A DNA stretch of 39,066 nt from the IMG/VR virus record IMGVR_UViG_3300022744_000014, positions 1 through 39,066 of that record; one strand, 5' to 3'. Under the pieces are notes generated by a model that was not told the origin of the DNA, ran no database searches, and was given only the letters and a program-made list of their open reading frames with translations. Position numbers and translations under genes: made by a program. Origin of the DNA: a virus. Of this stretch, positions 1 to 39,066 are shown one piece after another (within the stretch, counting starts at the first letter, position 1; each line of letters begins with the position of its first letter).

Positions 1-127
1 GCACTCGTCATAAGTCATGGTGTGCGTGAGGTAGTCGCCGTCCACGGTCTTGATGGTGCAGTACACCCCGACAACCTCGCCTCGATCCTTGCCAAACGGG
101 TTGAAGACGTGCGTAGGCGGTTTGTCT
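1..127. repeat. Terminal direct repeat, copy A (identical to 38940..39066); end overlap of a circular or circularly permuted genome
   Basis: Direct letter-by-letter comparison: 1-127 equals 38940-39066. Confidence 0.95.
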
Positions 128-510
128 AGCCCGTTGAGGGTGAAGGTATCGGCCGCATGAACCAAAGCCGCCTGCGCCCATTTAACGCTTCCGGTGGCCT
201 GCGCCAAATCCATCAGCCCCATGTACGACACATCCAGGCAGATGCGCCCGTCACGCGGCACCAGATACGCTTGCTTCTTGGCAGGGTTCAGGCTCACGCC
301 GATAGCCCCGACGTTGATGATGGAGTCATACACCGACTGGCGGTTCTGCATTGCCACGCTCATGGTGTACTCGTTGCGCGACAGTTGCTGCATGGCAAAC
401 CCGGCCTCGCGCTCAAAGTTCAATGACTTGTCAGAAAGTACAGCGTCAAAGTTGCTGCGGGCCGCGTAAATGTCGTCGCTGATAACGGTCAATGCGTCTG
501 CGGTACTCAT
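1..510 (-). CDS. recT: RecT-family single-strand annealing protein, N-terminal part (gene continues at 39066..38463 through the end overlap)
   Basis: ATG at 510 overlaps the stop of the upstream ORF. Translation MSTADALTVISDDIYAARSNFDAVLSDKSLNFEREAGFAMQQLSRNEYTMSVAMQNRQSVYDSIINVGAIGVSLNPAKKQAYLVPRDGRICLDVSYMGLMDLA runs off the window start in frame with the ORF ending at 38463. Confidence 0.8.
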   Translation of the reverse strand, partial: MSTADALTVISDDIYAARSNFDAVLSDKSLNFEREAGFAMQQLSRNEYTMSVAMQNRQSVYDSIINVGAIGVSLNPAKKQAYLVPRDGRICLDVSYMGLMDLAQATGSVKWAQAALVHAADTFTLNGLDKPPTHVFNPFGKDRGEVVGVYCTIKTVDGDYLTHTMTYDEC

Positions 511-776
511 GCGTGCTCCTTGTCGTAGGTTTCGATAGTCTTGGCGAGCAGATCCATTTCATCCACCTTGTACTGGCGCATGATGGATTTGTCGCCGTGG
601 ATGCCACGCGGGCCGATATGGCACATCGGGCAAAGCGGGATAGTCAACCAATGGCTTGCGCGTTGGGCCATGCCCTGGCCTTCGCGTACGTGGTGCAACT
701 GGACGCCATAAGCACCACAGCAGCAGCAGGGAAGCTGCGCCAGTCGGTCCATGCGGCGGCGCTCGGCTTTGGTCAT
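507..776 (-). CDS. Ref-like (recombination enhancement) HNH-type nuclease, 89 aa
   Basis: ATG at 776. Cys/His pattern LPCCCCG...LHHVREGQGMAQRASHWLTIPLCPMCH...GIHG resembles short Ref-family nucleases; lies between ninB and recT. Confidence 0.55.
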   Translation of the reverse strand: MTKAERRRMDRLAQLPCCCCGAYGVQLHHVREGQGMAQRASHWLTIPLCPMCHIGPRGIHGDKSIMRQYKVDEMDLLAKTIETYDKEHA

Positions 777-1156
777 GCTGCCTCCAGATGCACGCCACGC
801 TCGGCGCAGAATGCATTGATTAGCTCCAGCAAGTCAGAAAACTCGCGCTTGCTCATCTTGCTGGTGGACAGGCCCAGCGCCACAAACCCGGTGCCCTCAA
901 GGTTTGGCACGACATCCATACGCTTCAGGCTTGCGGTAAAGATGTGTTTCCAGTCCTCGGCATCCAGCTTGCGCCCATGCCATACGACTTGCGCTGACAC
1001 TTCAGAGAGCATGGCCCAAAGCAGGGCGTTCTGCTCAAGGTTGCGCGTAGGCTCCGCCACCGTTACTGCAAACCCCACAGGCGCATCTGCCACTGCCTGC
1101 ATGGCCCTGCGCCGAGATGGGTGCGGCTCTGGCTGAAGGATGAATTGCTGTTTCAT
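773..1156 (-). CDS. ninB: NinB/Orf-family recombination protein, 127 aa
   Basis: Start MKQQFILQ at ATG 1156. EQNALLWAMLSEVSAQVVWHGRKLDAEDWKHIFTASLKRMDVVPNLEGTGFVALGLSTSKMSKREFSDLLELINAF aligns closely by eye with lambda NinB (DQNRKLWACLGDVSRQVEWHGRWLDAESWKCVFTAALKQQDVVPNLAGNGFVVIGQSTSRM). Confidence 0.85.
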   Translation of the reverse strand: MKQQFILQPEPHPSRRRAMQAVADAPVGFAVTVAEPTRNLEQNALLWAMLSEVSAQVVWHGRKLDAEDWKHIFTASLKRMDVVPNLEGTGFVALGLSTSKMSKREFSDLLELINAFCAERGVHLEAA

Positions 1157-1479
1157 TCCCGCGCCTCCCAATAGTCGGCATAACGCGCATCCTTGCGGAG
1201 CATGTCCCAATAGTCATGCTCTTGGGCGGCGCGTTCGTCGTCCTCGGCAATGGCAATCTCGTCGGCCAAAGACTCAATCTGCGCCTCGGTCAAATCGTCG
1301 GTGATGGTGCAGCCGCCATACGTCACGGCAATCACTTCAACCCATGCCGGCTCTTCTGGAAAGCACTTTTCCGGTGGCCCGTAAGTGCGGCCAGGATACC
1401 CCTTGTGCGCGTCGTATTCCACGATGACTTCAGCCTCGCCGCCGCGCAGTTCGATGGTGGTTTGGTATTTCTGGCTCAT
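1153..1479 (-). CDS. Hypothetical acidic protein, 108 aa
   Basis: ATG 1479 overlaps the upstream stop (ATGA). This is the in-operon part of the longer track ORF 1153..2016, whose upstream portion overlaps better ORFs. Confidence 0.55.
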   Translation of the reverse strand: MSQKYQTTIELRGGEAEVIVEYDAHKGYPGRTYGPPEKCFPEEPAWVEVIAVTYGGCTITDDLTEAQIESLADEIAIAEDDERAAQEHDYWDMLRKDARYADYWEARE

Positions 1480-1667
1480 GGCTTGCCAATCACAACAACA
1501 AACACAGCGAAGATTGCGACGATGACGAGGACAGCCATGCCGTATCTCCCCCATGCGTCTTGCCGGTCGGCGATCTGGTGAACTGCGGACGCATAGCGCA
1601 CGTTGTCGCGGCTCTCGCGCTGTGACAGCAGGTAATCGAAGGGACGGTCGGTGAAGGTGGGTTTCAT
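1476..1667 (-). CDS. Small membrane protein, 63 aa, C-terminal TM helix
   Basis: ATG 1667 (MKPTFTDRP) overlaps the upstream stop; C-terminal hydrophobic stretch YGMAVLVIVAIFAVFVVVIG. Confidence 0.5.
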   Translation of the reverse strand: MKPTFTDRPFDYLLSQRESRDNVRYASAVHQIADRQDAWGRYGMAVLVIVAIFAVFVVVIGKP

Positions 1668-2068
1668 TTGCTGCGCTCCTGCAACCAGTCGTAGAGTTCG
1701 TCCGCATCTGCAAACACGCGATAGGCTTCGTCTTTGGTAGCCATGCGCGTGTACTCCCAATCGTGCAAATGGTTGTAATCACAACCGACCTTGACGGATG
1801 TAACCACGCCTTCGTACATGGGATATTCCAACAGCGAAGGCCCGCCGTGAAAGGGCATGCAACTTGAGGCGTCTTGGTACATCTGCGGCCCGTCAAAGTT
1901 CGCAAAATGCGGATGCTTGGGGTAGATGTAGGCATAGACGCACCAGCGGTGCCCGAGGTCGCTGTCATAGCCGCAACCCTCATCCACTGCCACGCTGTGC
2001 CGGGTAACGCTGACAAGGAAATCCTTGCCCGAGCGTTTCCACTCGTCTTTGTGCTTCCATTCGCTCAC
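1664..2068 (-). CDS. Hypothetical protein, 134 aa
   Basis: GTG start at 2068 with GTGA overlap on the upstream stop and a G-rich SD upstream; no recognised motif. Confidence 0.55.
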   Translation of the reverse strand: MSEWKHKDEWKRSGKDFLVSVTRHSVAVDEGCGYDSDLGHRWCVYAYIYPKHPHFANFDGPQMYQDASSCMPFHGGPSLLEYPMYEGVVTSVKVGCDYNHLHDWEYTRMATKDEAYRVFADADELYDWLQERSK

Positions 2069-2235
2069 GACAACCCCCTAACGCGGCGCGTGCGCTGCTC
2101 CTGCACATCAAGCTCGCCCCGGATGCTGTCCAGGCGGGCGTCGTCGTCACCGTAGTCGCGGGAGAATGCGCAGAACTTGGCGACTATCCAGCACAGGGCA
2201 ATCCATGCTGTCAGCCAAAAGAGAAAAGTAAACAT
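2065..2235 (-). CDS. Small membrane protein, 56 aa
   Basis: ATG 2235 is preceded by AAGGAG with 7-nt spacing; N-terminal TM MFTFLFWLTAWIALCWIVAKFCAF. Confidence 0.55.
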   Translation of the reverse strand: MFTFLFWLTAWIALCWIVAKFCAFSRDYGDDDARLDSIRGELDVQEQRTRRVRGLS

Positions 2236-3023
2236 CAAACATTCTCCTTTGGAGTCCACAGCACGGCATGTGCCTCAATCATGAGCATCGCCATTTCGTA
2301 CTCTTTGGCGTGGTCGCTGTCTTCGTGGGTTTTTGCAACGGCAGCGCGGAATGCGTCCAGCGTGTCAAAAAAGCACCCCGCGCGGATCATCACGCCCTTG
2401 TCGGTGATGGAGGCTTGCAGATAGTCAGAACGGGAGCCGATGGGGCCGATGGTGAAAAACGGGCGAGTGCCTACGAGTTTTTTCCCGCCCAGGTCCGCGC
2501 CGCCCAGGTTCGCGCCGACCAGGTCCGCGCCGCCCAGGTCCGCGCCGACCAGGTACGCGCCGCCCAGGTCCGCGCCGCCCAGGTTCGCGCCGCCCAGGTC
2601 CGCGCCGCCCAGGTACGCGCCGCGCAGGTCCGCGCCGCGCAGGTCCGCGCCGCGCAGGTCCGCGCCGCCCAGGTTCGCGCCGCCCAGGTCCGCGCCGACC
2701 AGGTACGCGCCGCGCAGGTCCGCGCCGCGCAGGTCCGCGCCGACCAGGTACGCGCCGCCCAGGTCCGCGCCGACCAGGTCCGCGCCGACCAGGTTCGCGC
2801 CGCCCAGGTACGCGCCGACCAGGTACGCGCCGCCCAGGTCCGCGCCGACCAGGTCCGCGCCGCGCAGGTCCGCGCCGACCAGGTACGCGCCGCCCAGGTT
2901 CGCGCCGCCCAGGTTCGCTTTGGCAAACGTCGCCTTCTCCAGCGTCTGGCGCATCGTCATTCCGGCATCGCCCTCAAAAAGGACTGCGCCGGTATAGCGG
3001 TGTTTGATGATGATTTTTTCCAT
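2235..3023 (-). CDS. Pentapeptide-repeat protein, 262 aa: about 29 tandem A[D/N/Y]L[G/V/R]G units plus an 85-aa C-terminal domain
   Basis: ATG 3023 with AGGAGC SD. Translation ANLGGANLGGAYLVGADLRGADLVGADLGG... matches the pentapeptide-repeat consensus A(D/N)LXX. Confidence 0.9.
   Translation of the reverse strand: MEKIIIKHRYTGAVLFEGDAGMTMRQTLEKATFAKANLGGANLGGAYLVGADLRGADLVGADLGGAYLVGAYLGGANLVGADLVGADLGGAYLVGADLRGADLRGAYLVGADLGGANLGGADLRGADLRGADLRGAYLGGADLGGANLGGADLGGAYLVGADLGGADLVGANLGGADLGGKKLVGTRPFFTIGPIGSRSDYLQASITDKGVMIRAGCFFDTLDAFRAAVAKTHEDSDHAKEYEMAMLMIEAHAVLWTPKENV
2490..2918 (-). repeat. Tandem 15-bp repeat array: 28 full units plus a partial one, coding for the pentapeptide repeats
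   Basis: Plus-strand unit is caggt[c/t/a]cgcgccg[cc/ac/cg]. Only 3 of the 15 positions vary across all units. Confidence 0.95.
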
Positions 3024-3032
3024 GGTCTGCTC

Positions 3033-3251
3033 CTAAACAGCGGCGGCAAGAAACTCGGGCACCGATTCCGGCTCGGTGACGGACACGACAACCGGAGGCA
3101 GGCGGTTGAGTGCGTAGCGCATTTCCGTCCGTGCGTACATCACGGTTTTGTAGGCATCGTGGTTGGCGGTTTGCTTGCCAAACAGTTCTTGCTCGGCAAC
3201 AAGCAGAGCCGCATAAACCTCATGCAGCAGCTTGGCGTTGATGGTGCTCAT
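3033..3251 (-). CDS. Hypothetical protein, 72 aa
   Basis: ATG 3251 overlaps the upstream stop; part of the same-strand early gene string. Confidence 0.5.
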   Translation of the reverse strand: MSTINAKLLHEVYAALLVAEQELFGKQTANHDAYKTVMYARTEMRYALNRLPPVVVSVTEPESVPEFLAAAV

Positions 3252-3475
3252 ACAGACTCCACTTCCGGCAAATTGGCTTCGTAGTTCAGCGTGTCCACTA
3301 CGTCAGCAGACAGCGCTTTGATGATGTCCACGCCCTGATAGCGCACAGCGATAACGTCCTCAATCGCTTCCTCGTATTCCCGATCCATCGCGCTGTCATA
3401 GCGCTCGATGTAGCCGGTTTCTGTTTCGACTTCGACTACGGCAGCGCCGTCGCCGATGGTGGTTAGGAATTTCAT
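3248..3475 (-). CDS. Hypothetical acidic protein, 75 aa
   Basis: ATG 3475 (MKFLTTIGDG) preceded by AAGGAGC; the longer track ORF start is upstream of the SD. Confidence 0.55.
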   Translation of the reverse strand: MKFLTTIGDGAAVVEVETETGYIERYDSAMDREYEEAIEDVIAVRYQGVDIIKALSADVVDTLNYEANLPEVESV

Positions 3476-3485
3476 GGATTGCTCC

Positions 3486-3749
3486 TTATGCGGAGAGGGT
3501 GGCGCGGCGGCGGGCGTGAGCCATGTCGGCCCAATATTCGGCGGCTTCGCGGTAGTCGGGCGTTGCGTCGCGGCGCTCGGGCGCTTCGACGTACACGGTA
3601 AACAGGTTGAAAGTGATGCTGTCGCGGCACTGGTCAACGACGGTTAGATCGTTGGTGGCAATGAATGCGTCTTTGTGCGCGGCAGTCTGGTAGTCACGCA
3701 GTTGCTTGCCGTCGCAGACGATGCGGTAGGTGGGTTGCGGGTTGCTCAT
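3486..3749 (-). CDS. Hypothetical protein, 87 aa; first gene of the leftward unit
   Basis: ATG 3749 (MSNPQPTYRIV) with AGGAGC SD at 3755-3760; downstream of the leftward promoter. Confidence 0.55.
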   Translation of the reverse strand: MSNPQPTYRIVCDGKQLRDYQTAAHKDAFIATNDLTVVDQCRDSITFNLFTVYVEAPERRDATPDYREAAEYWADMAHARRRATLSA

Positions 3750-3783
3750 GTCGTTGCTCCTGTGTTTGTTGCTGATGGGATGA

Positions 3784-3812
3784 ATTATGTTCCCTATTCC
3801 GAACCACGTCAA
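3784..3812 (-). promoter_or_regulatory. Leftward early promoter candidate: TTGACG, 17-nt spacer, CATAAT
   Basis: Read on the minus strand: -35 at 3812..3807 and -10 at 3789..3784, about 35 nt upstream of the first leftward ATG. Confidence 0.5.
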
Positions 3813-3849
3813 AAACTAATTTGCAATAGTTGACCAAGTGCGAGGGCTA

Positions 3850-3878
3850 TTGACTAGTACGGACGCACGGACTAACAT
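3850..3878 (+). promoter_or_regulatory. Rightward early promoter candidate: TTGACT, 17-nt spacer, TAACAT
   Basis: -35 at 3850..3855 and -10 at 3873..3878; the -10 ends 7 nt before ATG 3886. Confidence 0.45.
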
Positions 3879-3885
3879 CGGAGCC

Positions 3886-4083
3886 ATGAACATCCAAGAC
3901 CATCTGCGCGACTTGCACCGCGCCTACACCCTTCAGCAGATAGCCGACCTGTGCGGCTTCAGCAGCAAGGGACATGTGCATGACGTACTCACGGGCCGGC
4001 AAAAGACCGTGACGTTTTTCCTCGGCATGCGAATCATGGAAGCCCGCAAAAGGCTCATGCGCAAAGAAAGGCGGTCCGCATGA
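3886..4083 (+). CDS. Cro-like small HTH DNA-binding protein, 65 aa
   Basis: ATG 3886; HTH-like segment YTLQQIADLCGFSSKGHVHDVLTGRQ; first gene of the rightward unit. Confidence 0.55.
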   Translation: MNIQDHLRDLHRAYTLQQIADLCGFSSKGHVHDVLTGRQKTVTFFLGMRIMEARKRLMRKERRSA

Positions 4084-4322
4084 TAGACGCCTTTGCAGAC
4101 ATAGAGGCACGCATTGACGCTGCCGACAAGCGATACGGGCCATTTGCCAGCGCGCACGAAGGTTTGGGCGTGGCGCTGGAGGAATGGCAGGAGCTGATCG
4201 AGGCAGTGCGCTCCAACAGCATCATTGACGTGCAATCGGAATGCCTGGACCTGGCCGCAGTGTGCATCCGGCTTGCGATGTGCTTGGGCGAACCGCAAAC
4301 CGCACTTAGGAGCGTGAAGTGA
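4080..4322 (+). CDS. MazG-like all-alpha NTP pyrophosphohydrolase family protein, 80 aa
   Basis: ATGA overlap with the upstream gene. EEWQE ... ECLD spacing fits the EExxE...ExxD metal-binding motif of the MazG superfamily. Confidence 0.4.
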   Translation: MIDAFADIEARIDAADKRYGPFASAHEGLGVALEEWQELIEAVRSNSIIDVQSECLDLAAVCIRLAMCLGEPQTALRSVK

Positions 4323-6523
4323 ACTACGATGATTTTGTGAAAAGCAAGCGCCGCTTCGAGGTTGCTACCGGCCACAAACCCGCAGAGCTAAACGAGCATC
4401 TGTTTGATTTCCAGCACGCAATTGTGTCGTGGGCTGTCCGACGTGGCCGCGCCGCAATCTTTGCCGATACCGGCCTGGGCAAGACGCTGATGCAGTTGGC
4501 ATGGGCTCAGGAAGTGGCGCGGCACACGGGCGGCATGGTGCTTGTGCTTGCGCCCCTGGCAGTGTCCGAGCAGACCATCGAGCAGGGCGCATTGTTCGGC
4601 ATCGATGTGCGCCGCGTACCGCATGGCGAAGCACCTGCAGGGCCTGGCGTATGGATCACAAATTACGAGCGCATGGATGCGATTGATTTTGGCGAATTGC
4701 ATGGGATCGTGCTGGATGAGTCATCCATTTTGAAGGCGCATGACGGCAAGACGCGCGGGCGCATCATCTCCCAATCGCAGAGCGTGCCGTACCGGCTTTC
4801 GTGCACTGCTACGCCATCGCCTAACGACTTTGAGGAGCTTGGCAACCAATGCGAGTTTCTCGGGGTGATGACGCGCACAGAGATGCTGGCGACTTACTTT
4901 GTCAACGACACTGGAGACACCGGGACATGGCGTCTTAAGGGATGGGGCGCATCCAAGTTTTGGGAGTGGATGGGGACATGGGCAGTCGTTCTGCGCAGCC
5001 CTGCGGATATTGGTTTTGATGGTTCGCGCTACGACTTGCCGCCGCTTGTCTATCATGAGCATGTGGTGGAAACCGAGTCTCTTGGAGATGATTTGTTTTC
5101 CCGGCCAGCACAGACCATGCTGGAGCGCAGGAAGGCCCAACGGGACAGCATCGAAAGCCGATGCAAGGCCCTGGCCGACATTGTGAACGCGGAGCCTAAC
5201 GAGCCGTGGCTGATCTGGTGCCACCTGAACGACGAAGCGCAGATGCTGGCCGAGATGATTGGCGGTGCCGTGAATGTGCAGGGTTCAGATTCCGCCGAAA
5301 GCAAGAGTAAAAACCTGCTTGGTTTTGCGCATGGAGATTTGCGAGTACTGGTCAGCAAGCCCAAACTCGCAGGCTACGGGATGAATTGGCAGCACTGCGC
5401 CCGCATGGCGTTTGTCGGTCTGGATGACAGCTTCGAGAAGTTTTATCAAGCTGTGCGTCGGTGCTATCGCTTCGGCCAAAAGCGCGAGGTGCAAGTGCAT
5501 ATCTTCACGGCTGAGAACGAGGGGCAGATCATTACCAACATCCGGCGCAAGGAAGTGCAGCACCACGAGATGAGCATCCAGATGATTGAACACATGAAGG
5601 ACATTATGAACAAGGAACTTGCAGGTCAAGAGAACATTGTGGACGAGTACCGCGAAGATGTTTTTAGGTCAGAGAACTTTACCGTTCACCTTGGGGACTG
5701 CGTGAAGATGGCCCGCAAGCTGCCCGACAACAGCATTGATTACTCGGTGTTCAGCCCGCCGTTTGCCGACCTGTTTGTTTATTCCAATTCCGATCACGAC
5801 ATGGGTAACTGTAAGGATGATGCGGAGTTTGTTGCGCAGTTGCGGTTTCTGATTGCAGAACTGTTTCGCACGATCAAGCCGGGGCGCAATGTGTCATTCC
5901 ATTGCATGAACCTGCCGACAACCAAGATGCGGCAGGGATTCATCGGCCTGCGTGACTTTCGTGGGGATCTGATCCGAGCGTTTCAGGATGCCGGGTTTAT
6001 CTACCACTCTGAAGTTGCCATTTGGAAGGACCCGGTAGTGGCGATGCAACGCACCAAGGCACTCGGATTGCTTCACAAGACGATCCGCGAGAACGCAACC
6101 ATGTCAAGGATGGGCCTTCCTGATTACGTGGTGACCATGCGAAAGCCTGGGGATTGTGAAGTCAGGGTGACGCATGGCGATGACCTGCCGGTGATGATGT
6201 GGCAGAAGTTTGCAAGCCCCATCTGGAGCGACATTAACCAAGGGCGCACATTGAACAAACTTCCTGCCCGAGACGACAATGACGAAAAACACATGTGCCC
6301 GCTGCAGCTGGATGTGATCGAGCGGTGCATTCATCTTTGGACTAACAAGGGCGACTTGATCTTTTCTCCGTTTACCGGCATTGGCTCGGAGGGATATTGC
6401 GCCGTCAGGATGGGGCGTAGGTTTATCGGTGCCGAGTTGAAGCCCCAGTATTGGGAGCTTGCGTGTCAGAACATTGCTGATGCCGAGCATGAGCAGCATG
6501 GCCTTTTTGCGGAGGCAGCATGA
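4319..6523 (+). CDS. Fusion protein, 734 aa: N-terminal SNF2/DEAD-type helicase plus C-terminal beta-class N6A/N4C DNA methyltransferase
   Basis: GTG start with GTGA overlap. Helicase motifs ADTGLGKT (I), VLDESSILK (II), SCTATPSPND (III), QAVRRCYRFGQKREV (VI). Methyltransferase motif IV DYSVFSPPFADLF precedes motif I FSPFTGIGSEGYCAV. Confidence 0.85.
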   Translation: MNYDDFVKSKRRFEVATGHKPAELNEHLFDFQHAIVSWAVRRGRAAIFADTGLGKTLMQLAWAQEVARHTGGMVLVLAPLAVSEQTIEQGALFGIDVRRVPHGEAPAGPGVWITNYERMDAIDFGELHGIVLDESSILKAHDGKTRGRIISQSQSVPYRLSCTATPSPNDFEELGNQCEFLGVMTRTEMLATYFVNDTGDTGTWRLKGWGASKFWEWMGTWAVVLRSPADIGFDGSRYDLPPLVYHEHVVETESLGDDLFSRPAQTMLERRKAQRDSIESRCKALADIVNAEPNEPWLIWCHLNDEAQMLAEMIGGAVNVQGSDSAESKSKNLLGFAHGDLRVLVSKPKLAGYGMNWQHCARMAFVGLDDSFEKFYQAVRRCYRFGQKREVQVHIFTAENEGQIITNIRRKEVQHHEMSIQMIEHMKDIMNKELAGQENIVDEYREDVFRSENFTVHLGDCVKMARKLPDNSIDYSVFSPPFADLFVYSNSDHDMGNCKDDAEFVAQLRFLIAELFRTIKPGRNVSFHCMNLPTTKMRQGFIGLRDFRGDLIRAFQDAGFIYHSEVAIWKDPVVAMQRTKALGLLHKTIRENATMSRMGLPDYVVTMRKPGDCEVRVTHGDDLPVMMWQKFASPIWSDINQGRTLNKLPARDDNDEKHMCPLQLDVIERCIHLWTNKGDLIFSPFTGIGSEGYCAVRMGRRFIGAELKPQYWELACQNIADAEHEQHGLFAEAA

Positions 6524-6897
6524 GCGGCCCCAGACCCAAAAACGGACGCAAAGCCGGGAGTGTGATGCGAGCTACCTGCAAGAAATGCGGGGCGGTTGAG
6601 TGCAGCCACTACGGCGGGCGCTACTACCTTTGCGCCGATTGCTTGGCCACTCGTTTGTCAGAGATACGCCGACTGGCGGGCGAGGGATTGAACCAGACGC
6701 AGATCGGACAGCGGATTGGCATCAGTCAGGGTGCTACGCAGGTCTGGATGGCCCGCTACAACATCAAGACGGCGGGCATGGAGAAGCCCAAAGCAAAGAC
6801 CCAGCGGGTACGGGCGCCTGATCCATTTCGCGTCCCCGTTCAGCCGACAGAGTTTGCGCTGAAGGCGGTTAGCATTTTCAACCTGGGATCTGCATGA
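6520..6897 (+). CDS. Zinc-ribbon plus HTH DNA-binding protein, 125 aa
   Basis: ATGA overlap. CKKCG...CADC zinc ribbon followed by GEGLNQTQIGQRIGISQGATQVWMARYNI (HTH). Confidence 0.55.
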   Translation: MSGPRPKNGRKAGSVMRATCKKCGAVECSHYGGRYYLCADCLATRLSEIRRLAGEGLNQTQIGQRIGISQGATQVWMARYNIKTAGMEKPKAKTQRVRAPDPFRVPVQPTEFALKAVSIFNLGSA

Positions 6898-6918
6898 GCC
6901 CGTTTACCTCTAATAGGC

Positions 6919-7092
6919 ATGAGCGCGAGTGGGCTTTATGCGAGTAGAATGAAAACTCAACGGCAGTCGAATGCCCCAAAGGACAAGATGCAGTTTCTTT
7001 CGATAGACACACTCGTAGGCCCATCAAAGGCGCTCGCCGTTCTTGTCCGGGATTCGACCCTGCGCGTGTGTCTTTCCAAGGGAACTGCATGA
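6919..7092 (+). CDS. Possible small ORF, 57 aa, filling the 277-bp gap; an internal ATG at 6988 has the better SD
   Basis: Hand translation MSASGLYASRMKTQRQSNAPKDKMQFLSIDTLVGPSKALAVLVRDSTLRVCLSKGTA; below the track length cut-off; the gap is less GC-rich by eye than flanking genes. Could equally be non-coding. Confidence 0.2.
   Translation: MSASGLYASRMKTQRQSNAPKDKMQFLSIDTLVGPSKALAVLVRDSTLRVCLSKGTA
7005..7073. repeat. Imperfect inverted repeat with 15-nt arms (7005..7019 and 7059..7073) and a 39-nt spacer
   Basis: agacacactcgtagg pairs with cctgcgcgtgtgtct (13 Watson-Crick pairs, 1 G-T pair, 1 mismatch). Confidence 0.6.
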
Positions 7093-7174
7093 GCTGGTCA
7101 GCAATCTACTGGAGCCAGCACGCATTCGAATGCCCCGAGGGCGAGTGCTTTTTCTGGCATGCGGGGGGCATGGC

Positions 7175-7906
7175 GTGAACTACTACGAGCGCCACATCGG
7201 GGACTACCTGAAGGACACGGCGCACCTGTCCCTGCTTGAGCATGGGGTTTATAGCCGTCTGCTGGACGTTTATTACACGCGGGAGGGCGCCATCCCCGTC
7301 GCGCAGGTTGAACGACTTATCGGCGTGCGTAGCAAGGACGAGAAGGCTGCGCTTGCCAATGTGCTGGATGAGTTCTTTACAGTAGGCGCAGAGATGCTGA
7401 CGCACAACCGTTGCGATCGTGAAATTGCACGCTATCAGGACAAGCAAGCGAAGGCAAAGCGCAGTGCTGACGCACGATGGATTGCGCAACGTTCGCACAG
7501 CGGTGGCAATGCGAACGCAATGCGAACGCATAGCGAAGGCAATGCTCTCCAGTCTCCAGTAACCAGTAACCAGACACCAGACACCAAAGAAGAGAGAGAT
7601 AGCGGGTCAGCGCAAGCGCCGACACCGCCACCCCCGTACCGAGGGGAAGCGAATGAGGCAGAAATTCACCCTAAAGCCAAGGTCGTTCTGGCGACGGATT
7701 GGGAGTTGCCGGAGCCGTGGGGCGTGGATGCCGAGAGCCTTGGCTGGCCTGCGCAGAACATCTTGCACGAGGCGGAGAAGTTCCGGCAGTTCTACACGGT
7801 CGGCAAGGGTGGGGGAACGCGCCGTGGGCTGAAAGGCTGGCGGCAATCGTGGTCTAACTGGCTGTCGAACGCTGAGAAGTTCGCGCCGATTCGGAGGGTT
7901 GCATGA
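7175..7906 (+). CDS. DUF1376 (YdaU-like) replication-associated protein, 243 aa
   Basis: GTG 7175 gives VNYYERHIGDYLKDTAHLSLLEHGVYSRLLDVYY, the typical DUF1376 N-terminus. Alternative in-frame starts are ATG 7130 and TTG 7043. Confidence 0.65.
   Translation: MNYYERHIGDYLKDTAHLSLLEHGVYSRLLDVYYTREGAIPVAQVERLIGVRSKDEKAALANVLDEFFTVGAEMLTHNRCDREIARYQDKQAKAKRSADARWIAQRSHSGGNANAMRTHSEGNALQSPVTSNQTPDTKEERDSGSAQAPTPPPPYRGEANEAEIHPKAKVVLATDWELPEPWGVDAESLGWPAQNILHEAEKFRQFYTVGKGGGTRRGLKGWRQSWSNWLSNAEKFAPIRRVA
7506..7587 (+). repeat. Short tandem repeats inside the DUF1376 gene: 11-mer gcaatgcgaac x2 plus degenerate copies, then heptamers NNNccag x6
   Basis: gcaatgcgaac at 7506-7516 and 7517-7527; tctccag x2, taaccag x2, acaccag/acaccaa across 7546-7587; inverted gttcgc at 7491-7496. 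Confidence 0.8.
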
Positions 7907-8169
7907 GCTACAAGGAAAAGGCCCGCAGCGAGGGCAAAGAAGTTGACAAGGTTGAGCATCCGCCTCTGCCGTGCAGGCAATGCAACGCCATGACGGCGGT
8001 CGTGATCCTGCTGGAGCATGGCGGCTTGTGTCACTACTGCTACACGGATTATTGCCGCCATGGGTTGCCGTACTACCGCGCCGGAATGGGTGATACGCGG
8101 ACGGTCGCGGACATGAAGACGCGGATGCGCAGTAGCGGGAAGTTGACGGCACCGGAGGCGCGGATATGA
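7903..8169 (+). CDS. Cys-rich (zinc-finger-like) hypothetical protein, 88 aa
   Basis: ATGA overlap; CRQC...CHYCYTDYC pattern. Confidence 0.5.
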   Translation: MSYKEKARSEGKEVDKVEHPPLPCRQCNAMTAVVILLEHGGLCHYCYTDYCRHGLPYYRAGMGDTRTVADMKTRMRSSGKLTAPEARI

Positions 8170-17107: not shown

Positions 17108-19204
17108 ATGAGCATTCGCGTAACGATCACAAAGAGCGGCGTCACGGACGGCTATGGCATTGCCATGGTTGTAGGGACGACATACACAGTCAATGATGAC
17201 TTTGGACTGTCGCTCATCAGTCAAGGCAAAGCCACCGACACAGATGGAAGTCTGGTCAATCCAGGGGTTGGGCTTGGTGTTGCGCCAAGTTTGGTGTATT
17301 GCAACGCAGCCACCATCGCAGCACCGACTGCGGCAATGCTTGCAAACGTCAACGCGATTTATGCGCTTGATGTTGCGCCATTTGGGCGCTATCGCAGCAA
17401 TGGAACGGCGCTTGTGTCTGCGGCTGAAGTTCAAAACTCTAACGGGTTTTTATCTTTGGTGGATGGTTCTGGTGGCGTTCCTCCGACTGCGCAGCCAGGG
17501 GTTCGCACTGTACTTTTTGGCGATTCACTCACGGATAACTACGAAGTCGTTGTAATTTCAACAAGCGCAGTTTTGTCGGGCAGCACGTTGACGGTAACTT
17601 ATGCCGGTCATCAGCAAGCCAATGGCTGGTATGTGTGCCTATGGAACAAAACATATTCCAGCTTCACCAAATTTCAACGCTTGCCGGTTACGGTAACGTC
17701 TTCAAGCGTCTTTACTGTTGCGCTTCCTACAGACGTTGCAGCGGGATTGCCACAAGGCGCACTTGCGGGAACGACGTTCTATCGTGCTGAATCTTGGCGC
17801 AGCGCGGAACATTGGCTAGGCTGGCTGCAAGCCATAAGCGGGCAGCGTTTCAACATTGTCTGGAACGGCGGGCAGTCTGGAGACACGACTGCGCAGGCAC
17901 TGGACCGCGTGACCCGCGACCTGAGTCCGTACAGCCCGCAACTCGTTTTCATGGTGATGCCGGGAATTAACGACATGTCTGCTAATCCGACGACATCGGA
18001 AGAAACGATCTACACCAACCAAGTGGCCTTGATTCGAGCCGTCAAGAATACCGGGGCTTACTTGGTGCTGATGACGCCCCAGCCGGTGTGCAGCCCCGAT
18101 ACGCGGGCGACGGCTCAACTGATGAGCAAGATTCGACGGCTAAAAGACCGGGTGCAGGCTTACTGTTTGGGGATTACTGGCGTCACCGTGGTGGACGCAT
18201 TTAAGGCAATTGTGGACCCCACATCTGCGACCGGGTTGGCAAACACCAATTACCTGCGGACAACGGACGGAACGCACTACAGCCAACGCGGCGGCAAGTT
18301 CTTGGCCGATCTGATTTGGTCGCAAATTCAGCCCTATTTCCCCGGCAACGTGCAGACGCTCCCGGCATCCAAGCAGGACCGCTACATCGGTTCTGCGCTG
18401 TCCTTGACCAGCGTCAGCAGGGCGTCGAACGTTGTCACTGGGACATCCAACGCCCACAATCGTTCTGTGGGCGAGGTGCTGAAACTCTCCGGCGGCTCGG
18501 AATCGTTCAATTCCTATGTCACGCTGACCGCCGTCACCACAAACACGGTGTCTTTTGCCTCAACCGGATCGGATGGCTCAATCACGGGCACCATCCTGCT
18601 AGGCGGCGACAACAACATTTTTGACAACCCGACTTTCGACACCGCAACGGGCGGCACGTTGGTCGCTGGCTCGGGAACCTGCACAGGCACTGCCCCAAGT
18701 CTCATCAAGGTCAGCAACGTAGCGGGGACGCCTGCGACGGTTTGCTCTGTCGTCGCTCGCCCGGACGGCTATGGCAACGACCTGCAGCTGGTTATCACGC
18801 CCGCATCTACCTCCGATCAAGTTTCGGCACAGGTGGACTTCACCCCGTCAACCGTCACATACCCGGCGCTGGTTCTTGCTGGACGCACCTACTATTTTGA
18901 GTGTGAGGTTTCGCTGATCGGCGTGGCAGGTTGCGGGCTGGGTGAAATCCGCTGCAACATGAGCATGACCATTGGCGGAACGCAGTACCAGACCTATGCG
19001 CTCAACGGTTATGTGAACGGCGCTGTCATCAACGAGGACGTAACCGGGTTGCATTTGCGAAGTGCCCCGTTGTTGATGCCGTCTGGGACCGCCACGATCG
19101 TCAGGCCAGAGGTCTTGGTTGGTTTCAGCAATTGGGCATCTGGTGCAACCCCGCTTGTTGTGAAGATTGGGCGCGTTGCCCTGCGTGAAGTCGAAGGAGC
19201 CTGA
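17108..19204 (+). CDS. SGNH/GDSL-hydrolase domain protein, 698 aa (putative virion-associated esterase/deacetylase)
   Basis: Block I VLFGDSLTDNY, block II WNGGQSGDTT, block III MPGINDM, block V DGTHYS, in the canonical order. Confidence 0.75.
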   Translation: MSIRVTITKSGVTDGYGIAMVVGTTYTVNDDFGLSLISQGKATDTDGSLVNPGVGLGVAPSLVYCNAATIAAPTAAMLANVNAIYALDVAPFGRYRSNGTALVSAAEVQNSNGFLSLVDGSGGVPPTAQPGVRTVLFGDSLTDNYEVVVISTSAVLSGSTLTVTYAGHQQANGWYVCLWNKTYSSFTKFQRLPVTVTSSSVFTVALPTDVAAGLPQGALAGTTFYRAESWRSAEHWLGWLQAISGQRFNIVWNGGQSGDTTAQALDRVTRDLSPYSPQLVFMVMPGINDMSANPTTSEETIYTNQVALIRAVKNTGAYLVLMTPQPVCSPDTRATAQLMSKIRRLKDRVQAYCLGITGVTVVDAFKAIVDPTSATGLANTNYLRTTDGTHYSQRGGKFLADLIWSQIQPYFPGNVQTLPASKQDRYIGSALSLTSVSRASNVVTGTSNAHNRSVGEVLKLSGGSESFNSYVTLTAVTTNTVSFASTGSDGSITGTILLGGDNNIFDNPTFDTATGGTLVAGSGTCTGTAPSLIKVSNVAGTPATVCSVVARPDGYGNDLQLVITPASTSDQVSAQVDFTPSTVTYPALVLAGRTYYFECEVSLIGVAGCGLGEIRCNMSMTIGGTQYQTYALNGYVNGAVINEDVTGLHLRSAPLLMPSGTATIVRPEVLVGFSNWASGATPLVVKIGRVALREVEGA

Positions 19205-29718: not shown

Positions 29719-31670
29719 TGGACTTGTCCAAGCTGTCAGATGCCGATTTGATGGCCTTGAAAGCGGGCGACCTGACCAAGGTTTCGGACGCTGGTTTGAT
29801 GGTTTTGAAAGGCGAGCCTGCGCCCCAAGAGCGCAGCAGCATGGATGAGCTTGGCCGACAAATCGGGCTGGCTGCGCGGGCTGGCGTTAAATCGCTATTG
29901 ACAGTTCCAGCCATGCTTTCCGATGCCGCCACGGGAGTGGTTAACACCGGGCTTGATGTGGTGCGCGGCAAAGGCAATGGCTTTCGATTCCAAACTGTCA
30001 ATTCGGCGGCGGACAACCTGATGACCGGCGCGGGCATTGCGGCACCTGAGAACGCGACGGAGCGCGTGGTGCAAGACGCAACACAAGCAATGGGCGGCAC
30101 GGGGGCAACCGTCAAGGCGGGGCAGTTCCTAGCCAAGAATGCCGCGCCCGTTGTTTCCAAGATCGGGCAGTTTCTATCTGCCGGGCCGGGGATGCAGACC
30201 GCTGCCGCGCTCACAAGTTCCGGCGCTCAAGGCATTACCCGCGAAAACGGGGGTGATGCCGTCGATCAATTTGCAGCGGGCATGGGCGGCGCTTTTCTTC
30301 CTGCCGCTGCTGTTGGCGGTGGCTCTGCTGTTGTGCGAGGCTTGCTTCGAGGCGGCGAAGAGGGGCGGCAGACTGTCGCAAAAAACATCAAGCTGTTTGA
30401 CGATGCGGCGGGCGTTTCACCATCCGTGGGGCAAGCCACCGAAGGCCGCGTTGGGCGGGGCATTGAATCCTTTTTGTCCAAAGCACCGGGCGGCGCGGGC
30501 GTCATGCAAAAGTCGGCGCAGGACAAAGCGGCGGCAATGGCAAAAGCGGTCAACGATACAGCCGATTCGCTCGCTCCGGGGGCCAGCGGCATCAAGGCTG
30601 GCGAAGCCATTGAAAAAGGCGTGCAGGGGTTCAAAGAAGGCTTCAAGAAGGTGCAAGAGCGGCTTTACAACACGCTTGATAAGCACATTCCCAACGACTC
30701 CCCAATTCAAGTCGGCAACACTGAATTTGCGCTCAAGCAGTTAAACGAAGGCATTGAAGGCGCTCCGAATATTTCCGAGTTCTTCAAAAACTCCAAGATC
30801 AAAGGTATTGACGTTGCGCTGCAAAAGGATTTGGAGCTGTCTGCCACGGGCGGCACGCTTCCCTATGAGGCGGTTAAGAAGTTGCGCACCCTGATTGGTA
30901 GGGAGATTGCTGATAACTCGCTGCTTGCAGATGTTCCGCGCTCCAAGTGGACGGCGCTCTATGGCGCATTGTCCGAGGATTTGGGCATGGCTGCAAAACA
31001 AGCTGGCCCGCAGGCAGAACAATCGTGGCAATGGGCAAATCAGTTTACCAAGGGGCAACTGGATCGGCTGGAAAGCCTGTCCAAAATCGTCGGTAAGGAC
31101 TCGCCAGAAAAGATTTTCCAAGCGGCCCTAGCTGGCACGTCTGAAGGCAACACCATCATTAAGCGGGTGGTTGACGCCATCCCCAAGGACAACCGCAAAG
31201 AACTAGCAGCGGCAGTGCTTCGCCGGATGGGTCAGGCCAACAACAGCGCACAGAACGCGGCAGGCGATGTGTTTTCGTCTGAAACGTTCCTGACCAATAT
31301 CAACAAGCTATCGCCAGAGGCGCGGTCTACGTTGTTTGGTCGGCTCGGTGTGCCTGATGTGCCCAACAAGTTGGCGCAGCTTGCGGAGATGGCCGCAAAC
31401 ATGCGCGAGGGTTCAAAAGTGTTTGCCAACCCGTCAGGAACGGCGCAGGCGCTGTCTTTGCGCGATGCTGGGCTTGGCACGCTCGGGGCATTGCTCACGG
31501 GCCATCCTGGCGTTGCTGCTGCAAGTGCTGGGGTTGTCGGCGGCTCCAACCTGCTTGCCAAGAAGATGACTGACCCAGATTTTGTGAAATGGCTGGCAAA
31601 CCGCACAGAGGTTTCTCCGACGCTGCCCGCCGTCGCTGGGAATGCTTTGCAACGGGCGCTTGCGCCTTAA
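29718..31670 (+). CDS. Putative internal virion / ejection protein, 650 aa
   Basis: TAATG overlap; duplicated N-terminal LSDADLMALKAGDLTKVSDAGLMVLKG; largest protein of the three-gene block. Confidence 0.4.
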   Translation: MDLSKLSDADLMALKAGDLTKVSDAGLMVLKGEPAPQERSSMDELGRQIGLAARAGVKSLLTVPAMLSDAATGVVNTGLDVVRGKGNGFRFQTVNSAADNLMTGAGIAAPENATERVVQDATQAMGGTGATVKAGQFLAKNAAPVVSKIGQFLSAGPGMQTAAALTSSGAQGITRENGGDAVDQFAAGMGGAFLPAAAVGGGSAVVRGLLRGGEEGRQTVAKNIKLFDDAAGVSPSVGQATEGRVGRGIESFLSKAPGGAGVMQKSAQDKAAAMAKAVNDTADSLAPGASGIKAGEAIEKGVQGFKEGFKKVQERLYNTLDKHIPNDSPIQVGNTEFALKQLNEGIEGAPNISEFFKNSKIKGIDVALQKDLELSATGGTLPYEAVKKLRTLIGREIADNSLLADVPRSKWTALYGALSEDLGMAAKQAGPQAEQSWQWANQFTKGQLDRLESLSKIVGKDSPEKIFQAALAGTSEGNTIIKRVVDAIPKDNRKELAAAVLRRMGQANNSAQNAAGDVFSSETFLTNINKLSPEARSTLFGRLGVPDVPNKLAQLAEMAANMREGSKVFANPSGTAQALSLRDAGLGTLGALLTGHPGVAAASAGVVGGSNLLAKKMTDPDFVKWLANRTEVSPTLPAVAGNALQRALAP

Positions 31671-38462: not shown

Positions 38463-39066
38463 TTATGCGGCTACGGTTTCGTTGAGGGATGCGCCATGCT
38501 TTTTCAGGGCGCTGCGAATGTTGGAGGGCAGGAGCTTCCAGAGCTTTACCTTTTCGTCGCCGTCAGTGATGCCGATGTACTCGCCATAAGATCCGACAAC
38601 GTCACCCGCATTGAACAGGTCAACAACGGCGTTAGCGACGGCTTCTACAACTGCCTGCCTGTTGCTGGCCAGTTGGATGTCAGGTGCTGCGGCAAACACC
38701 GGAACTGGCTGCACCGCCTGCAATTTCTCCTCGGCAATTGCCGCCAAGCCCTCGCCGTTCTCCTCGTTCAGATGGTGAATGGCAGTCTCCAGCCGGTCTG
38801 TTTTGGGCCAATATTTGTATGCCTGTTTCACGCAAGTCTTTTTGACCATCTCGCCCTCGTCGGTGCCCCACGGCCCCGGCGACTTGGCTTTCTTGGCAAT
38901 CCAAGATTTCCACGCCTGCGACCTGTCCCGAATTGCAATGCACTCGTCATAAGTCATGGTGTGCGTGAGGTAGTCGCCGTCCACGGTCTTGATGGTGCAG
39001 TACACCCCGACAACCTCGCCTCGATCCTTGCCAAACGGGTTGAAGACGTGCGTAGGCGGTTTGTCT
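38463..39066 (-). CDS. recT: RecT-family single-strand annealing protein, C-terminal part (continues from 510..1 through the end overlap)
   Basis: In frame with the 510..1 segment; DGDYLTHTMTYDECIAIRDRSQAWKSW...EMVKKTCVKQAYKYWP is typical of the RecT C-terminal core. Confidence 0.8.
   Translation of the reverse strand, partial: DKPPTHVFNPFGKDRGEVVGVYCTIKTVDGDYLTHTMTYDECIAIRDRSQAWKSWIAKKAKSPGPWGTDEGEMVKKTCVKQAYKYWPKTDRLETAIHHLNEENGEGLAAIAEEKLQAVQPVPVFAAAPDIQLASNRQAVVEAVANAVVDLFNAGDVVGSYGEYIGITDGDEKVKLWKLLPSNIRSALKKHGASLNETVAA
38940..39066. repeat. Terminal direct repeat, copy B (identical to 1..127)
   Basis: Direct letter-by-letter comparison. Confidence 0.95.

Follow-up and report, generated by a model that had tools for sequence, protein, structure and literature searches.

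We analysed IMG/VR virus record IMGVR_UViG_3300022744_000014 over positions 1 to 39,066, and this whole stretch of 39,066 nucleotides is called the window below. It is a phage genome of the P22-like podovirus type, with genes for a large terminase, a P22-like portal (43% identical to that of Pseudomonas phage PAE2), an endolysin-like protein, and RecT. The gene of interest lies on the minus strand and encodes a 262-aa pentapeptide-repeat protein (PRP), in which an array of nearly identical 15-bp units sits between a small N-terminal cap and a conserved C-terminal domain, hereafter the C-domain. Comparison with related loci indicates that the array turns over rapidly while the diversity of its units is restricted to the predicted protein surface. 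The parts of the gene, with secondary structure elements (E, strand; H, helix) taken from an AlphaFold2 (AF2) model, are as follows.

2235..3023, minus strand: coding sequence of the repeat protein, 262 aa, ATG start, TGA stop at 2237-2235; N-terminal cap, predicted pentapeptide-repeat beta-helix, and conserved C-domain
2925..3023, minus strand: N-terminal cap, residues 1-33 (MEKIIIKHRYTGAVLFEGDAGMTMRQTLEKATF), predicted beta-hairpin plus helix (AF2 elements E5-7, E14-17, H24-34)
2910..2924, minus strand: degenerate first unit AKANL, which bridges the N-terminal cap and the array
2490..2909, minus strand: core array of 28 units of 15 bp, [GGC/GTC/CGC]-GGC-GCG-[GAC/AAC/TAC]-CTG, from an in-register unit table
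2475..2489, minus strand: degenerate last unit GGKKL, whose conserved GKKLxG motif runs into the C-domain
2238..2489, minus strand: C-terminal alpha/beta domain of 84 aa, 4 strands and 2 helices, from the AF2 model and the alignment of homologues

The 1-kb stretch that holds the array (2001-3000) reaches 68% GC, and open reading frames (ORFs) also occur in other frames here (2268-3284 and 2440-2997 on the plus strand, 2471-2926 on the minus strand). We rejected these as stop-free artefacts of a periodic, GC-rich repeat, since the homologous flanking domains are found only in the annotated frame. In relatives, the alignment of homologues shows that the N-terminal cap keeps the motif IKxRxxGxVLF...LExA, and the cap matches phrog_31265 and phrog_31567.

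The original prediction, made from the sequence alone, described 28 units at 2490-2909 with three variable positions and a single codon for each Ala, Leu, and fixed Gly. The unit table agrees with this in full, and Tandem Repeats Finder (TRF) reports a single array at 2485-2918 with a period of 15, 28.9 copies, 90% matches, and 0 indels. The set of codons had been given correctly, while the order of the first two had been swapped: the peptide unit is [G/V/R]-G-A-[D/N/Y]-L rather than G-[G/V/R]-A-[D/N/Y]-L, which in standard pentapeptide notation is A(i-2)-[D/N/Y](i-1)-L(i)-[G/V/R](i+1)-G(i+2). Across the 28 units, Ala is always GCG, Leu always CTG, and the fixed Gly always GGC. The joint chance of these 28+28+28 identical codon choices is ~10^-32.7 (about 1e-33) when measured against 16 long ORFs of the window, where GCG makes up 34% of Ala codons, CTG 41% of Leu codons, and GGC 49% of Gly codons; outside the array, the repeat gene itself mixes its Ala, Leu, and Gly codons. 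Only unit positions 1 (G/C), 2 (G/T), and 10 (G/A/T) vary. All of these changes are non-synonymous and fall at codon position 1 or 2, with no third position varying. Eight of the 9 possible pairings of the two variable residues are present in the array, and no pattern by helix face is evident among its variable residues.

A diversity-generating retroelement (DGR) could in principle be considered for variation of this kind, and we rejected the array as a DGR target, since the bases exchanged at its fixed variable sites are G/C, G/T, and G/A/T, and the second A of the NAC codon stays constant. TRF found no template copy elsewhere in the window, and no reverse transcriptase was found among the ORFs scanned, which were not all of the ORFs.

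A megablast search of window positions 1-8000 against GenBank phages returned no match, so there is no close relative among them for a direct comparison of arrays. We compared 57 arrays of at least 8 units from fetched related loci (numbered with the prefix L below), which hold 8 to 45 units each. Among shorter members the count is 1-10 units, so that the family as a whole spans 1-45, and the earlier expectation that the array would vary in length is confirmed. The share of these arrays in which each position of the unit varies is given here.

Position 1 of the i-1 codon: varies in 95% of arrays, with a mean minor-allele frequency of 0.37
Position 1 of the i+1 codon: varies in 79% of arrays
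Position 2 of the i+1 codon: varies in 72% of arrays
Positions 1-2 of the i+2 codon: vary in 47% of arrays
The five third codon positions: vary in 11-23% of arrays, with minor-allele frequencies of 0.02-0.045
Position 2 of the Leu codon: varies in 0% of arrays

At i-1, 96% of units carry N, D, or Y (His occurs once), and the residues found at i+1 across arrays are R, A, S, G, Y, and D. Almost every one of the 57 arrays uses one Ala codon and one Leu codon throughout, but the choice differs from array to array, with the combinations GCG/CTG, GCC/CTC, GCC/CTG, GCG/TTG, GCG/CTT, and GCT/CTG all in use. This combination of uniformity within arrays and difference between them is the hallmark of concerted evolution, in which the array of each lineage has been homogenised independently, and it upholds the suggestion that slippage or conversion keeps the units alike. 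Neutral variants thus appear to be swept out of these arrays, while diversity at the solvent-exposed residues is kept or repeatedly regenerated.

Pairs of closely related loci show turnover of units more directly. L025 and L030, which come from different samples, are free of mismatches over 12.6 kb of alignment, and the only gap between them, of 15 bp, corresponds to one DYG unit, leaving 20 units in one and 19 in the other. L052 and L078 have C-domain DNA that is 100% identical, with 28 versus 24 units in a different order, although their wider flanks are only 83-97% identical. The C-domains of L021 and L047 are 99.1% identical, and their arrays, of 24 and 20 units, differ in their surface residues. 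In some pairs, such as L014 and L077, the arrays are identical, which suggests that turnover is fast but not instantaneous. As judged by these alignments, the array evolves by gain, loss, and conversion of units with diversity restricted to the surface.

Since such arrays break or distort metagenome assemblies, lengths in databases are not to be trusted without long reads, and this applies to the unit count of the window as well. It is conceivable, in our view quite improbable, that the count or order of units in the window is wrong through repeat collapse, expansion, or chimerism. Related contigs do end in the array (for example L011, L018, L019, L036, L046, L054, L074, L076, L082, and L083), and the repeat of 24_60, a PRP of Vibrio phage 24 that is discussed below, proved difficult in assembly, so that PCR and Sanger sequencing were required for it (bioRxiv 10.1101/2024.07.02.601686). 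In the window, however, the frame stays intact over 420 bp and is flanked by homologous N- and C-terminal parts, and the longest exact repeat inside the array is only 52 bp, so reads of 100-150 nt could resolve it in principle. The isolated Pseudomonas phage Amjad_SA encodes a homologue of 262 aa, the same total length as the window protein, with a 29-unit array, and arrays of 20-45 units recur in dozens of independent contigs. Even if the count were an artefact, the array itself would still exist.

The repeat is followed by a non-repeat C-terminal part, as had been noted, which comprises 84 aa. It had been treated as incidental, and this proved mistaken: across the homologues the C-domain is the most conserved and family-defining part of the protein. 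Its invariant or near-invariant elements are R-P, GPIGSR, T, G, AGCF, F, H, H-x2-EY, A, and H-x3-W, and when modelled alone it reaches a mean AF2 predicted local distance difference test (pLDDT) score of 93.8. A Cys/His metal site in this domain is a lead only, as the His residues are not kept in members of the type found in Bacillus phage phiAGATE (below). We used residues 179-262 as the query in searches for the family. A word-indexed protein search, which returned only proteins of up to 147 aa, gave 62 matches at 46-72% identity. The idea that relatives have short arrays, which these matches raised, was rejected after a scan of IMG/VR and an exhaustive search of representatives gave proteins of 63-447 aa (median 180). 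In the latter search, HMMER over 1.84 billion representatives found 953 clusters with the C-domain at E<=1e-3 and 218 at E<=1e-10, and the domain is C-terminal in nearly all of the 150 listed matches.

The C-domain was confirmed at 161 loci in IMG/VR and in 13 GenBank phage records, including gp3 of EBPR siphovirus 1 and the isolate Amjad_SA. It also occurs in 7 contigs of metagenome-assembled genomes among 185,579 species genomes, and it has 0 matches in plasmids. On this distribution the family is large and almost purely phage. The isolated C-domain matches phrog_20532 (8e-11) and phrog_7964 (2e-7), both of which are annotated "unknown function". It belongs to no Pfam family, with a profile search giving scattered single-member matches (best E 0.015); the profile found nothing at E<=10 among PDB sequences, and a fold search of the PDB gave nothing significant (best E 1.5). 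In BFVD the fold of the C-domain recurs only C-terminally in phage proteins annotated as pentapeptide, hexapeptide-transferase-like, "beta solenoid", "polymer-forming cytoskeletal", or leucine-rich repeat (LRR) proteins.

In the window protein and its relatives, the C-domain directly follows a beta-solenoid array and ends the protein. The solenoid itself need not be built of pentapeptides. Proteins of PHROGs 7964 and 20532, such as AGB62681 of Bacillus phage phiAGATE and gp209 of Bp8p-C (annotated as hexapeptide-repeat transferase-like or polymer-forming cytoskeletal), carry a homologous C-domain (PIGS...GCF...F...H...EY) after a beta-solenoid, and their genes, like that of the window, lie in regions of small hypothetical genes. 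They differ in having 6-residue (18-bp) repeats, a longer N-terminal domain, and a C-domain identity of only ~37%. We checked AGB62681 itself and found 6-residue repeats (GNAKVY DDAQVL GNARVH ...) followed by HPIGS...RGCF...F...H...EY. In four of the related loci, the pentapeptide gene lies next to another gene that has an 18-bp array of the GNARVY/GDAQVS/GSARVS type and the same kind of C-domain.

L031, 1-1700: second gene, 18-bp array with C-domain
L012, 7644-8303: second gene, 18-bp array with C-domain
L022, 7523-8254: second gene, 18-bp array with C-domain
L029, 1056-1793: second gene, 18-bp array with C-domain

In L031, arrays of 21-bp, 18-bp, and 15-bp units all occur within 1.7 kb. By its sequence architecture, then, the family consists of an N-terminal cap, an interchangeable beta-solenoid array, and a conserved C-domain.

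The proposal of a quadrilateral beta-helix of about 7 coils is supported. The protein matches Pfam PF00805 (Pentapeptide) with 160.7 bits against a cut-off of 20.2 (E 4.8e-48), and the AF2 model of the full protein, from a 51-sequence alignment, has a mean pLDDT of 84.3, with about 80 in the array. In this model an N-terminal hairpin and helix (residues 5-34) are followed by one strand for every 5 residues from about 37 to 181 and then by the 4 strands and 2 helices of the C-domain, so that the array is predicted to form a right-handed quadrilateral beta-helix of about 7 to 7.5 coils. Foldseek with the full model returned PRP matches only. It placed the repeat part on 4YCQ with a root-mean-square deviation of 1.2 A over 143 columns at 55% identity, and gave a probability of 1.00 to 4YCQ, 2J8K, 3DU1, and structures of MfpA and Qnr.

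Sequence matches in the PDB are designed or consensus PRPs, HetL, Np275/276, Qnr, and MfpA. Consensus and designed solenoids (Np275/276 and the synthetic Beta1, PDB 4YC5/4YCQ) are the closest in both sequence and structure (phmmer 1e-42), and this closeness shows that the array of the window is a near-idealised PRP. Unlike the window protein, these solenoids are cyanobacterial or synthetic, lack a C-terminal domain, and come without evidence of array turnover.

The link that had been drawn to Qnr, MfpA, and AlbG holds for the fold but not for family membership. Qnr, MfpA, AlbG, and McbG have the right-handed quadrilateral beta-helix and the A(D/N)LxG consensus in common with the window protein; unlike it, they lack the GPIGSR/AGCF domain, and their genes are chromosomal or plasmid-borne, while that of the window is a putative phage early gene. 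The repeats of these proteins are not known to be tandem copies at the DNA level. All NCBIfam PRP equivalog cut-offs are missed widely by the window protein, with scores of 37-61 bits against cut-offs of 240-460 (Qnr 36.9/240, MfpA 60.9/360, QnrA 48.5/450, QnrB 37.9/460). PRPs of the Qnr/MfpA type dimerise via a C-terminal helix and often carry loops (PMC10886550), while the C-terminus is modelled here as a globular alpha/beta domain of 84 aa. From its predicted structure, the protein is a genuine pentapeptide-repeat beta-helix that lies outside the Qnr/MfpA families.

The same comparison bears on the possibility that the protein is a DNA mimic of the Qnr/MfpA kind, in which an acidic beta-helix would stand in for B-DNA and inhibit a DNA-binding enzyme of the host, for example gyrase, RecBCD, a restriction enzyme, or some other defence nuclease. 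The fold is that of MfpA, Qnr, and AlbG, and the array of the window is indeed acidic, with 16 D and 6 R, a net charge of -9, and an isoelectric point of 4.05; this net charge is, we presume, comparable to that of MfpA per coil. The gene is also often near phage recombination genes (YqaJ exonuclease, RecT, ERF, SSB), and RecBCD inhibitors such as lambda gam and P22 abc are typically encoded in the recombination-gene region of phages. The acidity of the window array is not, however, a trait that the family conserves. Among 78 relatives the net charge of the array runs from -0.62 to +0.17 per unit with a median of -0.15; 31% of arrays lie within +/-0.1 per unit, and 9% are at +0.1 or above. The array of Amjad_SA is exactly neutral, and L052 (-9) and L078 (+4) differ in charge despite their identical C-domain DNA. 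Members with 1-4 units, less than one coil, cannot make a rod of DNA length, and the same C-domain also follows hexapeptide solenoids of another geometry. The wide miss of the Qnr and MfpA cut-offs and the globular domain in place of the C-terminal dimerisation helix (PMC10886550) also speak against such a mimic, which we consider improbable. Given the spread of charge, the members with 1-4 units, and the hexapeptide paralogues, DNA mimicry does not appear to be a family trait and is a minority hypothesis for the family; the window protein itself, with its acidic array, may still be a mimic.

The closest studied analogue is the PRP 24_60 (SBVc24_0060) of Vibrio phage 24. Deletion of its gene leaves that phage highly sensitive to the RexAB-like abortive-infection system Sucellos, and all 6 escaper phages carried Y112R and N115D in the repeats of 24_60, at i-1/i+1 positions (bioRxiv 10.1101/2024.07.02.601686). 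Its units read GCA-[AAC/GAC]-CTA-[CGC/TAC]-GGC and vary at nucleotides 4, 10, and 11 of the Ala-first unit, which are the three variable positions of the window. Like the window protein, 24_60 is encoded in a phage early region and has a short N-terminus, a 15-bp array that is homogeneous at the DNA level, and a non-repeat C-terminal domain, and its homologues in Salmonella prophages differ in 5-aa steps. The array of 24_60, in its GenBank record, is much shorter than that of the window. Its C-terminal part has a VRAGCQ motif (xRAGCx), but it lacks the GPIGSR and His/EY motifs and belongs to PHROG 37032 rather than to 20532/7964; the match of the window protein to phrog_37032, the PHROG of the 24_60 C-domain, lies only in the repeat region. 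When the C-terminal part of 24_60 was compared with the C-domain of the family, hhalign gave a probability of 77% in a profile-profile comparison (E 2e-5, 44 columns) and of 47% in a profile-sequence comparison. The escape change from Y to R (TAC to CGC) needs two base changes, a hint at unit conversion over point mutation. The preprint shows the anti-Sucellos function for 24_60 alone, and we take this proposed anti-Sucellos factor as a candidate analogue for the window protein.

These surface positions also help to weigh a further explanation, in which the C-domain and N-terminal cap would suffice for function and the solenoid would be a rigid, interchangeable spacer or ruler, near-neutral in length and with a surface that is not a binding site. 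This would fit the C-domain being the most conserved part, the exchange of solenoid types (pentapeptide, hexapeptide, and those annotated as "beta solenoid" or LRR), and array lengths of 1-45 units. Neutral drift would, however, leave both synonymous and non-synonymous polymorphism, whereas the variation is confined to positions 1-2 of outward-facing codons. The residue sets at the variable sites recur (N/D/Y and R/A/S/G/Y), and the adaptive escape mutations of 24_60 fall at exactly these surface positions. We regard a pure spacer as rather unlikely.

The surroundings of the gene are listed here. Both promoters come from a consensus scan and are putative.

3784..3812, minus strand: leftward sigma70-like promoter, TTGACG-17-CATAAT, 10/12
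3850-3878, plus strand: second sigma70-like promoter, rightward, toward a helix-turn-helix (HTH) regulator
3749-3486, minus strand: 87-aa ORF, first of the leftward unit, AGGAG-type ribosome-binding site (RBS)
3475-3248, minus strand: 75-aa ORF, second of the leftward unit, AGGAG-type RBS
3251-3033, minus strand: 72-aa ORF, third of the leftward unit, AGGAG-type RBS
3030..3034, minus strand: AGGAG RBS of the repeat gene, 6 nt 5' of its ATG and overlapping the stop of the 72-aa ORF
2065..2235, minus strand: 56-aa ORF with a hydrophobic N-terminus (MFTFLFWLTAWIALCWIVAKFCAF...), its ATG overlapping the stop of the repeat gene (TGATG)
38463-39005, minus strand: RecT-like protein, at the opposite end of the window

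Following three small ORFs, the repeat gene is the fourth gene of a leftward unit downstream of the predicted sigma70-like promoter at 3812-3784. This agrees with its earlier placement in a leftward unit, and an early leftward unit among small unknown ORFs is consistent with the sequence. The divergent promoter pair (3784-3878) separates this unit from a small rightward HTH-like gene (3886-4083, plus strand), whose ATG lies only ~7 nt past the -10 element. Because its ATG overlaps the TGA of the repeat gene, the 56-aa ORF is probably translationally coupled to it; this ORF (2065-2235) has no family match in Pfam, PHROG, or NCBIfam. Past it, the leftward order continues with a 134-aa ORF, NinB (773-1210, minus strand), and a Ref-like/HNH nuclease (507-776, minus strand), and the leftward unit seems to run on across the window ends if the genome is circularly permuted.

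In relatives, the repeat gene lies amid genes for YqaJ exonuclease, RecT, ERF, SSB, RdgC-like proteins, and SNF2-methylase fusions, together with many unannotated small ORFs. The window encodes such a fusion, a 734-aa SNF2-type helicase with an N6/N4 DNA methyltransferase (4319-6523, plus strand), and close homologues of it are found near the repeat gene in 11 of 51 loci, for example at 2387-4585 in L031. L093, a 40-kb contig encoding the relative P0001, has a gene with the Pfam domain Acb2_Tad1_hairpin 1.5 kb downstream of the repeat gene and a Rap1a-domain gene just upstream of it (6990-7358 and 4460-4801). PADLOC gave no hits. Elsewhere in the window, a 698-aa protein of the structural region (17108-19204, plus strand) matches the lipase/esterase PHROGs phrog_6102 and phrog_19622, and further short tandem repeats occur at 7506-7545 and 30307-30346 (11 bp x 3.6 and 18 bp x 2.3).

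The reading that we prefer, and to which we give about as much credence as doubt, is that the gene encodes an early accessory protein of the phage, in which the variable surface of the helix is a tunable interface with a host partner that evolves fast and is most likely a protein of anti-phage defence or of DNA handling. In its favour we count the fold, the size and phage distribution of the family, the concerted evolution, selection signature, and speed of change of the arrays, the early leftward context, the Acb2_Tad1_hairpin gene of one relative, and, as the strongest outside support, 24_60. The protein has three parts: a small N-terminal cap, a predicted right-handed quadrilateral beta-helix, and the conserved 84-aa C-domain. 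Replication slippage or unequal recombination adds, removes, and shuffles 15-bp units, and this turnover keeps the units near-identical at the DNA level, while selection keeps diversity only at the solvent-exposed i-1 (D/N/Y here) and i+1 (G/V/R here) positions. We infer that the surface of the array would in this way adapt to a fast-evolving host factor, and that the C-domain would have an unchanging task, for example effector activity, oligomerisation, or capping.

Several observations weigh against a tunable host interface. No gene neighbour is conserved, the best being present at 11 of 51 loci, and a Pfam census of 150 neighbouring ORFs gave no enrichment of known anti-defence genes. The homology of the window C-domain to 24_60 is no more than suggestive, extending over 44 aligned columns with no C-domain PHROG in common. 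Many related metagenome contigs end inside the array, and metagenome assembly of such arrays is error-prone. Finally, an arms race need not be the whole source of the non-synonymous excess, to which a mutational bias or selection for heterogeneity could contribute.

The PRP fold is known already, phage PRPs are annotated in databases, and the family is present in PHROGs as "unknown function". Apart from the phage 24 preprint, the literature searched contained no account of this family or of hypervariable arrays in phage PRPs, and we could not find there its family-wide concerted evolution at the DNA level, its surface-restricted diversity, its rapid change of unit number, or the conserved C-domain that it has in common with hexapeptide arrays. 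The usual picture of PRPs is of static, gyrase-protecting DNA mimics, while the repeat array here is a fast-evolving, concertedly homogenised module in a large phage family.

A wider proposal, which we hold only tentatively, is that phages carry a widespread superfamily of hypervariable solenoids, in which arrays of 15-bp or 18-bp units act as a built-in diversification device beside a C-domain with constant effector function. It is likewise possible, though we lean toward doubting it, that slippage and unit conversion reshuffle a small set of surface-variant units and so alter both the length and the binding surface of a rigid beta-helix. If the surface of the array sets specificity against host defences, as the phage 24/Sucellos case hints, these proteins would form a common and easily recognised class of adaptable counter-defence factors and a source of host-range variation that is invisible to short-read assemblies, as well as a natural scaffold for the engineering of binders. 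If the hypervariable-solenoid proposal is true, phages would use repeats to adapt the specificity of anti-defence or host takeover, in a role comparable to that of DGRs or of LRR-based variable receptors.

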